Of a DNA stretch of 64,000 nucleotides, positions 11,265 to 17,223 are shown piece by piece. Location of the stretch: NCBI GenBank assembly GCA_964016885.1, contig OZ024741.1, positions 374,604,001 through 374,668,000 of the forward strand, in the 5' to 3' direction. Made by a program: the position numbers and the translations under genes. Every line of letters begins with the position of its first letter. Position 1 is the stretch's first letter. The notes beneath the pieces are model-generated. The model saw only the letters and a program-made list of their open reading frames with translations, was not told where the DNA came from and did not search any database. The stretch comes from Eledone cirrhosa. Its lineage: Eukaryota.

Positions 11265-11500
11265 TGGCTGCAGCAGATGACCAATCGTTAGATTTGGATA
11301 AGAGAATTTATCGTGGCATAGCAACTGGCTTAAAACTAAAGCAGTTACAGAAAGGCAAAAATCTGGTAATTGTGAGTGGTGTCCATCATACCAATGAATG
11401 TAATGACACTATAAAGATCATAGCTTGCCCAACAATTTCTGGAGTAATGCCACCCATTGCTGGTTTTAAGTCCCTACCAAAAGATACAGTTGAGTTCTAA
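11265..11500 (+). CDS. Terminal exon of a second pyruvate-kinase-like paralogue (upstream exons not found in window)
   Basis: T-rich tract plus TTGTAG acceptor in phase 1, the same position and phase as the last intron of the minus-strand gene. xAAADDQSLDLDKRIYRGIATGLKLKQLQKGKNLVIVSGVHHTNECNDTIKIIACP... aligns gaplessly to PK DPVQEAWAEDVDLRVNFAMNVGKARGFFKKGDVVIVLTGWRPGSGFTNTMRVVPVP. TAA stop at 11498-11500. Confidence 0.78.
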
Positions 11501-12711
11501 ATGGATAGATGAAAATGTTCGAAACATTTTAATTTATTTCTCTTTATCTCCTGCTTTATTTTCTAATTTATTTAGTAGATGGAATTTTTTTGATAAAGCA
11601 TGTTTAGAAATAAAACAACTTTTAAATATTTTGTTTTATTATTCATTTTTTTTCTCTACATTTGAAAAATCTGCCTTCCTAGTACTACTTAAGGCAAACG
11701 AGTTCTGATTGCATAACTGTGGATGTTGTAATACTAACGTGACTATCATCATCATCATCATCATCACCGTTTTACGTCCGTTCTTCCACGCTAGCATGGG
11801 TTAGACGGGTTGTCCTGTTGTGGGCAGTGTCTGGTTGGCTGACCATGCTTTGCTCATACATAGCTTGATTTCTACAGCTGGATGCCCTTCCTAACACCAA
11901 CCTCATTTACAGTGAGTGCTGGGTGCTTTTTCATGGCGCCTACACGTCCACTTTACAGGGTGGGCTGGGTGCTTTTTTTTGCCGTGGCACCTCCACGACC
12001 ACCTTGCAGTGGAAGGGTGTGGGGGCATATTGTCTATATGCTTCAGCTTGTACCCATGGGAGGTCGGGTACTCTGTATTACTGCGTGACGCCAGAGGTCA
12101 CGGTCGTTGTTCATAGTTTCAATTGCTACATTTATTTTTGATTAAAAGCATTATGTTGTAATATGGATATTAAAATATTCATGATAATAGTATCAGAGAT
12201 GATGTCCCAGGTATGTGATGAAAGAACTCTGAGACTATATATCTATATTTGTATCTATATTTTTAACTGTTGGTCAATCAATGATAAACATTGATTGCCA
12301 GCTAAATTAACTATAAGGATATAAAATATACTGAAGCAAAAACCAACCCAAACCAAACTGAGTGTGTTTTATTATATATTTCTGTCAATATTATATAACA
12401 TGGCCCTCCCCAAATATAAAAATATTCATGGTAGTATCTAAACTAATCATGATAGGAATAATATGAGATGACATTGAAGAAACTGGAGATCTAGTCTCGT
12501 AAAAGGCCAGCTAAAAATGCACAGGTGTGAACTTTAGATTAGATTGTTGCATCACCTAATGTGAGCACACTGATTGTTATTCACTTACTGGTTTCAGTCA
12601 TTAGACTGCGGCCATGCTGGAGCACAACCTCAAAGGAATTTAGTCAATCATATCAACCGCAGTTCTTATTTTATTGATCTCTTTTTCGAAGTGTGTGTGT
12701 ATATATATGCA

Positions 12712-14030
12712 CTAATACTGGCCACAGTACTTTCGGAACACACACCTCCACTGCTAATTTGGTCGCCCAGGTCACAGAAACTATCTACTTCTACCGAGCC
12801 CTCTGGCTATTTAAAGGGGCTAGTATCCTGTGGGCTCTTTCTACCTGTGCAATGAGCACATATAAAACCTGTGTTCTTTGTTAGCCTACCTGAAATCCAA
12901 CTACATCTCTTGTTACCCATAGTTTGCATTTGGGGTATAGGATGGAATTTCTACTCCTTTCCTGCACACCTGAGGCAATCTGGGCCCTGTTTCCCTTTCT
13001 ACATACTATGACTCTGGTCTTTGCCAAGTTGACTTTTAGACCTATAGATTCTAGGTTTTGCTTCCAGATTTGGAATTTTTTCTCTAGTTCTGCTATAAGG
13101 GTTAGATCATCTGCATACAGAAGTTCCCATGGGCAGGAAGAAAATAAACAGGAGAGGGCTAAGAATAGAGCCTTGATGCACTCTTACCTGAACATTAAAT
13201 TATTTGAGATGGAGGAAGTTCAGGGAACTAACTACAAAACATTTTTCCCTCAAAATAAAGGGCAGATTTGTATGATGTGTATACAAACAGTAATGTTGCA
13301 TAGTAGTGAGACCTGGGTACTGTGTGCAGAGGACCTGGGAAGATTGGAAAGAAATGAAGTTGGCATGCTTTGATGGATGTAATATAGATAAACAGCAAAG
13401 CATAAAAGAACTGCAAGAGAAACTGGGCATCAGAGGGATCAGATGCAGTGTGCAGAAGAGTAGACTGTATTGGTATGGATGTGTGATGCATATGAAGAAT
13501 GACAGCTACATAAAAAGGTGCAGGGCACTGAGTTGATGGATGCTATGTAGTAAGAAGACTTAGGATGAGGTGATAAAAGCTGACCTTGTACAAGTGTACC
13601 CCTCAAAGGCGATGAAACAGGATCAAGGTCTCTGGTGTTATGCAGTAATACAGAAGACCCACCTTCCCATGTGCATGGGTTGAAGCGTACATCTTGTATG
13701 TACTAGCTTCTGCTTCCCCCTTCCATACACCTCACACATCCTAACACCCCACCCTTCATCCAAATCCCCACAACCCCATCCTTCACCAGATAAGTGCCCC
13801 ACCCTATATCTACCTCACCAATCCTCACATACCTTCCCTACCCAAGCTCCCTGTCCACACTGCAAATGTGGTTGCCATTAGGAAGGGCATCAAGCTGTAA
13901 AATACAAGCCAGAAACAGTTCTATATGAGCATGACACTATCATCTGATCTGCCTTGTCGCACAATGGGACAACTCATCTAACTGATGCTAGCATGGAAAA
14001 ATGGATGTTAAACGGTTTGATGATGGATTA
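12712..14030. mobile_element. RTE-clade LINE with inverted 5' segment (about 12712-13200 minus, about 13205-14030 plus)
   Basis: The minus part encodes VHQGS.LSPLLF...[10 protein letters not shown]...ESTVARI remnants; the plus part resumes at WRKFREL...MLHSSETW...RLYWYG. Confidence 0.8.
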
Positions 14031-14159
14031 TTACAGAAATGTTTTTGACCTATCAATTCATTGGATTTCAATTTCTACTTTGGACTTTAATAAATGATTT
14101 GTTTTAGTTCCATGCATTTGGTATTTATTTGTACAGTAAGCACAAAACAACAAAATACA

Positions 14160-16250: not shown

Positions 16251-16969
16251 GCCCCCAGGCATGTACAAAAGTAAGTAAATAAAGAAATCAGTAGTCAGAA
16301 TATAAAATAAATAGACAAAGACTAATTATATATAAATCAGAAACATAATTAAGCAAGTTGTATTTTATTGCAGTATTTTATTTATTTTGATTTCTTATGC
16401 AAATATCAGGTTTTGGTCCTGAAATTCAATCGACTCTCTAGATAGTCCCATCAACTACTTCATCGAGGAACCTCTGCTCTAATGATTCTGCCATATTGCT
16501 GCCTTTTTGTTTTGTTGGCAGTGGTAGAATACCAACACAATTATATAAAGATTAAAAATTGTAGAATTAGATTTAGTATCTAATAAAATGGTCAGTTTAA
16601 CATTATATCTTATGTTAAGTTATCATTCAAACATCGTCTGTAAGTTGTTTTATTCTAAATGAACAAATAAAATCATATATCATGGTTTCTATATAATATT
16701 AATAAAATTCATTTGGAATGGTCAACAAGTTCACAGACCTCATTTGAATGGGGAGGAACTTGTCAAATAAGACCAAAGAAACAATGTTTCCATTGCTGAT
16801 ACTATTTACCAGTCGCAACACTTGGCAGAAAAAAATTATTTATTTCAATCATATTATGTATTTTATAGAAAGTTTACTTGTAATACCCATGAAAATATGC
16901 AAAGTAGTTGAAGATGTCAGTTCGCTTTTAAAGTTCATGATTATACTAGTGATATGATAGTCATATGAG

Positions 16970-16975
16970 TTTATT
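16970..16975 (-). promoter_or_regulatory. Candidate polyadenylation signal AATAAA of the minus-strand PK-like gene
   Basis: TTTATT on the + strand about 50 nt beyond the stop; the AT-rich context makes chance occurrence possible. Confidence 0.4.
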
Positions 16976-17023
16976 TGAATTAGAAATAATTTTATCTTCT
17001 TTAAAGCTTGTGAGAAAATTGAT

Positions 17024-17223
17024 CTAATATGTCATTGGAAGAGGGTCGTTTTCACCCGGTACTAAAGCCACACACATTGTGTCTGTAGACCCACTGCCTT
17101 CACCCCATCCACGCACTAACACAACTCGATCTCCGATTTTCAAATATCCTCTTTTCACAGTATTTTCAAAAGCTTTCCTGATTCCCAAATTATAATCATT
17201 TTCCTCATCACCTGTGAGTTGAC
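17024..17223 (-). CDS. PK-like terminal coding exon 11 ([66 protein letters not shown])
   Basis: ATGCAG phase-1 acceptor, TAG stop at 17024-17026; gapless alignment to the PK C-terminus. Confidence 0.93.

Follow-up and report, generated by a model that had tools for sequence, protein, structure and literature searches.

What do two pyruvate kinase (PK) last exons, lying tail to tail in the genome of the octopod Eledone cirrhosa, belong to, and could either of their proteins still work as a PK? We analyzed a window of 64,000 nucleotides (assembly GCA_964016885.1, contig OZ024741.1, positions 374,604,001 to 374,668,000 of the forward strand). An earlier reading of it, made from the letters alone (hereafter the sequence-only reading), took the two exons for divergent paralogues of one non-canonical family with complementary losses in the site for fructose 1,6-bisphosphate (FBP). 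We suggest instead, with a probability of roughly 0.4, that the minus-strand gene encodes a PK subunit that is catalytically dead, or nearly so, and assembles with the ordinary PK, and that the facing plus-strand exon is an ending of the housekeeping enzyme, PKM, that lacks the FBP loop. Papers are cited by PubMed Central (PMC) number.

Two facing last exons

The plus-strand PK-type last exon occupies 11265-11500 and its minus-strand counterpart 17223-17024, with 5523 nt between their stops, so that the tail-to-tail arrangement about 5.5 kb apart described by the sequence-only reading stands. So does its observation that both exons are entered in phase 1 at the identical protein position, and its view of an ancient split: 13 of 65 residues are identical in gapless alignment. 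A profile of 121 PKs run against 2642 open reading frames (ORFs) of the window gave 12 significant matches: the 11 exons of the minus gene and, at E=3.1e-6, the plus exon. The ORF ranked next, not a PK, stood at E=1.9. The plus exon also matches a profile of mollusc PKM last exons of type A (described below) at E=1.1e-10; with Pfam PK_C, the match that had been looked for is weak (E=0.041, 14.4 bits, under the cut-off of 28). No further PK exon was found at 1-11264 with the 121-PK profile and exon scans, and the rest of the plus gene therefore lies to the left of the window. An ORF at 5888-6106, considered as a PK exon, was rejected, having neither a donor site nor a profile match. The features of the two transcripts are as follows.

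1..11264, plus strand: probable 3' portion of the intron preceding the plus exon, more than 11.2 kb
11265..11500, plus strand: PK-type terminal coding exon of the plus transcript; phase-1 acceptor, 77 codons and stop
11609..11614, plus strand: AATAAA, candidate poly(A) signal of the plus transcript
38653..38788, minus strand: first coding exon of the minus gene, with ATG
33574..33668, minus strand: exon 2; R73 kept; N75V, S77A, H78Y
31167..31286, minus strand: exon 3; L112I, T114I, K115A; D113, E118, R120 kept
30313..30499, minus strand: exon 4 (B domain); clade marks D177E, L180P
27501..27652, minus strand: exon 5; S205N, K207Q, N210H
25169..25296, minus strand: exon 6; F244L; K270, E272 kept
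23629..23779, minus strand: exon 7; D296N, A293S, T328S
21835..21987, minus strand: exon 8; G363S; interface stretch 338-352 largely kept
19443..19609, minus strand: exon 9; FBP phosphate loop T432-S437 kept
18495..18613, minus strand: exon 10
17024..17223, minus strand: exon 11 (last); W482E, R489G, activation loop kept, N523D, stop

The minus gene and its active site

The minus gene runs from 38788 to 17024 in 11 coding exons with an intact open frame of 536 aa, and all ten introns (667-4984 nt) are GT-AG. Its full length, its barrel and PK_C domains (single exons match Pfam PK at E=7.6e-20 and PK_C at E=2.2e-11) and the fold of an orthologue model place it in the PK family. Orthologues 80-82% identical occur in Octopus sinensis, O. 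vulgaris, O. bimaculoides and Argonauta hians, their Octopus and Argonauta records carrying the label 'pyruvate kinase PKM' or 'PKM-like', and two further Logan clusters, 66-68% identical, presumably come from other cephalopods. Full-length, intron-free frames are found on Logan contigs of 1.7-3.7 kb, P0012 on 86 contigs. Three O. vulgaris models of this gene (P0006, P0007, P0008) were also seen, some with differing or truncated C-termini. The AlphaFold model of the O. sinensis orthologue (predicted local distance difference test score, pLDDT, 84) shares the fold of human PKM2 and rabbit PKM1 (PDB 3me3, 6wp5, 1a49; template-modeling score, TM, 0.85-0.88), with about 43% sequence identity; K270, E272, R73, R294, the FBP 6-phosphate loop and the activation loop are common to these proteins, whereas the K+ site, D296, K115, K207, H78, T328, G363 and R489 are changed in the minus protein.

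Two runs from one study, X1 and X2, bear on transcription. In X1 a contig covers the minus last exon as far as its acceptor at 17223 and carries 721 further letters, exons 6-10 together measuring 718; a contig of X2 runs across that acceptor, and X1 is probably RNA. The runs show no codon-changing difference at the minus W482 codon. Both have G, not A, at window position 17207, a synonymous difference in the codon preceding the W482 position.

We compared the active site with human PKM2 and 109 canonical PKs, numbering residues via a 531-aa fish PKM. N75V, S77A, H78Y, T114I, K115A, S205N, K207Q, F244L, A293S, D296N, T328S and G363S are present in all 12 rows of the cephalopod clade (among which P0004/P0002 and P0009/P0003 are near copies), and nine of these fixed changes are key (N75V, S77A, H78Y, T114I, K115A, K207Q, D296N, T328S, G363S); N75, T114, K115, K207, D296, T328 and G363 are kept in 109/109 canonical PKs. 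At the active site 12 of 26 positions are lost, compared with 41 of 174 among the remaining near-invariant ones (Fisher p=0.03); the interface stretches 303-318 and 338-352 lose 3 of 20 positions. The active-site list and the stretches are our own choice. All rows keep R73, D113, E118, R120, D178, S243, K270, E272, R294, G295, Q329, S362 and E364. The gene is an intact, conserved and, judging by the intron-free Logan frames, transcribed paralogue that has lost catalytic residues, as a pseudoenzyme is understood to be.

Which functions do these positions serve? In the rabbit enzyme Ser76, Asn74, Asp112 and Thr113 bind K+ (PMC4374775), and E272, D296 and N75 bind Mg and K+ in the account of PMC10004559, which also reports that N75L lowers the kcat of human PKM2 from 9.7 to 0.012 per min. 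The minus gene has V75, A77 and I114 among the K+ ligands, with D113 and E118 kept; of the divalent-metal pair it keeps E272, D296N being present in 12/12 clade rows; and R73 and K270, which serve phosphoryl transfer, are both there. The PKLR counterpart of D296N we take to be D339N, by an offset of 43. PKLR D339N co-segregates with PK deficiency, in a report without an enzyme assay (PMC8848962). We consider it likely that the minus protein has lost all or nearly all catalysis, because the K+ ligands N75, S77 and T114 are gone without a Lys118 to replace the cation, the Mg ligand D296 has become Asn, and K115, K207, H78 and G363 are changed. These losses bear out the view that the gene is a non-canonical, probably pseudo-enzymatic PK. 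With the modeled fold intact and the interface stretches mostly kept, the protein may well still assemble.

It seems to us unlikely that the minus protein is an active kinase after all, either K+-independent or shifted in substrate. Its hydrophobic residues at 114 and 121 and its loss of K115 (113, 120 and Lys114 in the rabbit enzyme) do echo covariants of K+-independent PKs (PMC4374775), and crenarchaeal PKs function without K+ and without Lys117; rabbit T113L shifts ion selectivity and leaves substrate binding little changed (PMC4284704); K270, E272, R73 and R294 are retained, and the new residues do not vary within the clade. According to a database of pyruvate kinases published in 2023, canonical activity is lacking in none of the known homologues (PMC10176505). 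However, K+-independent enzymes keep the cation-site Asn and Asp, whereas N75 is Val here and residue 118 is Glu rather than Lys, so that the minus protein differs from them in lacking Lys117, Asn74 and the Mg ligand Asp295 (rabbit numbering), the D296 whose role is named in PMC10004559. Limpet relatives lose E272 instead, and no single catalytic set is common to the clade.

These relatives bear on the age of the paralogue. The set holds seven more proteins with degenerate sites (three from limpets, two from oysters and two near-identical Logan proteins), and a third oyster copy with a degenerate site exists besides those in the tree set. Under both LG+G4 and LG+C20 PMSF (quick search) they group with the cephalopod proteins with a Shimodaira-Hasegawa-like approximate likelihood ratio (SH-aLRT) of 100, and the clade has in common four derived residues absent from canonical PKs (L112I, T114I, D177E, L180P). 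The approximately unbiased (AU) test under LG+G4 rejects a cephalopod-only origin from mollusc PKM (p=1.5e-7) and does not reject a single mollusc-stem duplication (p=0.30). P0010, P0011 and the truncated or fused P0006, P0007, P0008, P0013, P0016, P0133 and P0135 were left out of the alignments, and the redundant isoforms P0136-P0154 and P0156-P0200 served for last exons only. Because of the SH-aLRT support for the limpet and oyster grouping and the rejection of a cephalopod-only origin, we conclude that the minus gene, judged by its sequence, belongs to a mollusc-wide clade of predicted pseudo-pyruvate kinases; the system is not lineage-specific, as had been proposed, since limpets and oysters are included. 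In two of two limpets the pseudo-PK shares a chromosome with PKM, 73 locus tags away in P. caerulea. The limpet, oyster and Logan proteins P0017, P0019, P0155, P0069, P0091, P0160, P0127 and P0134 are annotated as pyruvate kinase and have eroded active sites with intact FBP residues: K115T/V, E118G, F244W and G363R/K, with E272Q and T328A in limpets and D296N in oysters.

Several observations count against our proposal. With R73, K270, E272 and others retained, slow or altered catalysis is possible. The excess of active-site losses is not significant in limpets (11/26 vs 49/174, p=0.17) or oysters (9/26 vs 35/174, p=0.13), and the losses partly differ between groups, limpets losing E272 and T328 and keeping D296 and N75, oysters losing D296 and keeping N75. 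The pseudo-PK branches are all long, which makes long-branch attraction possible, and in neither of two oysters are the pseudo-PK and PKM linked, the two lying on different scaffolds.

The FBP pocket and the plus exon

Do the two exons hold two halves of one site? R489 binds FBP phosphate 1 within its own chain. Each monomer has its FBP site in its own C domain, where W482 and K433 contact phosphate 1 and S434 phosphate 2 (PMC10004559). The motifs quoted in the sequence-only reading are there: in the minus gene the phosphate loop T432-S437 and the activation loop are intact while W482 is replaced by E and R489 by G, and in the plus exon R489 is present but the loop is gone. The minus gene falls short of the one-subunit set of an FBP-activated PK (T432-S437, W482, R489 and G514-T522), and the plus exon of its W482, R489 and G514-T522 part, retaining G514 beside R489, with W482 changed to Q and 515-523 replaced. 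The changes are not, as had been claimed, reciprocal, since W482 is missing from the plus exon too and N523 is Asp in both. W482E moreover occurs in this species alone, W being present in 11 of 12 clade rows, and R489 is lost in 12/12 cephalopod clade rows and kept in the limpet and oyster pseudo-PKs, which have W482, R489 and the FBP loop. As read from the residues, the conserved state of the minus protein is a phosphate-2 loop and an activation loop without R489, a sugar-phosphate pocket that may have been remodeled, with the 6-phosphate and activation loops kept and the 1-phosphate arginine lost.

The claim of complementary FBP-site loss falls with these results. We would give very little credence to two non-canonical subunits restoring each other's FBP site in a heterotetramer. 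One has the loop without R489 and the other R489 without the loop, and run X1 contains contigs consistent with spliced forms of both transcripts; but a single monomer's C domain supplies every FBP contact, W482 is absent from both exons, and the limpet and oyster members keep the complete trio of W482, R489 and loop. Because the pocket is formed inside one C domain, two subunits cannot pool their contacts.

The plus exon is better understood beside mollusc housekeeping PKM, which in bivalves and gastropods alike can end in either of two last exons, A or B. In isoform pairs from Mytilus, Saccostrea and Crassostrea the 300 residues leading up to the junction are 99.7-100% identical and those after it differ, and the same pattern occurs in Ostrea, Haliotis, Patella and Biomphalaria. 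The FBP activation loop, together with W482 and R489, is encoded in these A and B exons (P0018/P0021, P0095/P0086, P0061/P0097, P0161-P0172, P0156-P0159, P0190-P0200). Two pulmonate alternative endings have, like the plus exon, a degenerate FBP loop: Biomphalaria X3 has lost R489 and two loop glycines, and Physella X2 has G520D. A second PKM-type gene of a snail, P0096 (Bradybaena BsWGS_16621), on another contig than P0045, has an intact active site with G514C and T522A in its FBP loop.

The plus exon shares the junction of these exons and scores 38.6 bits with the exon A profile and 35.7 with exon B, against 24.7 with limpet and oyster pseudo-PKs, 25.8 with non-mollusc PKs and 3.5 with the minus clade. 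By these profile scores it derives from the housekeeping PKM lineage, and they do not support the two facing exons being paralogues of one non-canonical family. Its hydrophobic core pattern and tail motif are kept; the tail, which the sequence-only reading took for an addition of about 22 aa, resembles the mollusc exon-A tail (3 of 2000 shuffles score as high), if shorter. A transcript spliced into 11265, as that reading anticipated, appears to be represented by one X1 contig, in which 28 letters before 11263, without a match in the window, join the plus acceptor as the in-frame end of a PK penultimate exon at the standard PK junction (0 of 100000 shuffles score as well).

We see an even chance that the plus exon is an alternative PKM ending, and a substantial, somewhat lower chance that it ends a PKM-derived paralogue. 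That the plus gene is the ordinary housekeeping PK, an outcome the sequence-only reading had set against itself, is thus the leading reading in the form of an alternative last exon, though short of proof. A tentative alternative, to be taken seriously, is that the minus gene is as we propose and the plus exon ends a separate third PK gene, a fast-evolving PKM duplicate in a small non-canonical cluster. Several points speak against an alternative ending, and most of them favor this rival. Two of the nine residues upstream of the plus exon differ from the mollusc PKM consensus, one of them an Ile in place of a Phe kept in 33/33 mollusc PKM rows, and the join itself comes from one contig of a run without an RNA record. 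The identity of the plus exon to exon A is about 30%, against 55-67% between bivalve and gastropod exons A, a divergence well beyond that of any housekeeping exon A; W482 and the entire loop are lost, and it has N523D in common with the minus clade. No second last exon was found in the 11 kb preceding it. The comparison set contains no cephalopod housekeeping PKM. A further point for the rival is that flies have six PK genes (PMC10755183).

On the other side, 4 of the 33 mollusc PKM rows likewise deviate from the consensus at two of the nine upstream places, and a stand-alone protein with the plus exon was found in none of 80 candidates (a word-index search of longer proteins), nor any PK relative among the 50% representatives, searches that are weak with short diverged queries; a 48-aa piece of the minus gene did find three orthologue clusters. 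The lack of such a protein is expected of an alternative ending because these isoforms may hide in 90% clusters, as seen for Ostrea, Haliotis and Biomphalaria. Metagenome scans gave 0/283 and 0/66 stretches with the plus exon, and in the ESM Atlas it pointed to PK and PK_C only. P0010 and P0011, candidate relatives from the 50% representatives, were dropped as repetitive non-PK matches.

That the plus exon is a decaying duplicate, or its join the product of a processed copy elsewhere in the genome, we hold to be quite improbable. Its strong divergence, the absence of relatives in the protein and metagenome searches and the single X1 contig would fit; against this, the 77-codon frame is open and has a good acceptor, the contig joins exactly there and in frame, and the core pattern and tail motif are preserved.

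The window also holds repeats. LINE-type (long interspersed element) and SINE-like (short interspersed element) fragments lie in the plus intron portion at 1..11264; decayed LINE-type reverse transcriptase fragments lie at 12884-13183 and 36451-36882 (both minus strand; Pfam RVT_1) and, judged by eye, at 3032-3838 (plus) and 40210-41289 (minus). A long terminal repeat (LTR) retrotransposon RNase H-like domain lies at 55064-55507 (minus; Pfam RT_RNaseH_2, E=4.5e-30), and a tandem repeat of about 1.5 kb, open in several frames, at 28159-29694 in minus-gene intron 4.

Precedents and meaning

The closest precedent is the Drosophila pair Pyk/Pykl1, in which, as proposed here, a divergent PK paralogue adjoins the canonical gene. 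Drosophila has six Pyk genes (PMC10755183), among them Pyk and Pykl1, which are adjacent (CG7069 is the adjacent homologue), and adjacent pairs are read as tandem duplicates; the suffix 'like' marks predicted pseudoenzymes, proposed to be non-catalytic modulators, and most such paralogues are restricted to the testis (PMC11836677, PMC10755183). The fly copies are expressed chiefly in the testis and group within an insect clade, whereas the mollusc clade spans limpets, oysters and cephalopods. Neither a mollusc pseudo-PK nor alternative last exons in mollusc PKM were described in the literature searched, which included few subscription journals, and the supplements of PMC9712504 and PMC9699675 held no PK entry.

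We suggest that the minus protein, an intact and conserved paralogue with 12 of 26 active-site residues lost, would be a dead or nearly dead subunit that, by analogy, may act as a regulator or scaffold by assembling with active PKM; a germ-line role is possible, on the analogy with flies alone. The facing exon would be an alternative, FBP-loop-less ending of PKM, and the pair an old duplicate adjoining its parent gene rather than two halves of one site. It is a bolder and, in our estimate, improbable extension that molluscs have kept a metabolite-sensing dead PK subunit, tuning PKM in mixed tetramers, since before limpets, oysters and cephalopods split, with octopod PKM lying tail to tail with it and having an FBP-blind last-exon isoform.

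Molluscs are known for strong PK regulation under anoxia, and vertebrate PKM switches its FBP response through an internal exon (9 or 10), not the last. Predicted pseudo-PKs have so far been described for one fly species; if our reading is true, a clade spanning three mollusc classes would offer a testable dead PK with fixed substitutions, and the metabolic annotation of cephalopods, where Octopus records now read plainly 'pyruvate kinase PKM', would be corrected. Half of the FBP pocket is carried by the alternative last exons of mollusc PKM, which makes them candidates for switching allostery through splicing. Were the extension also true, the last step of glycolysis would be under two-layer control, unlike the PKM1/PKM2 switch of vertebrates.

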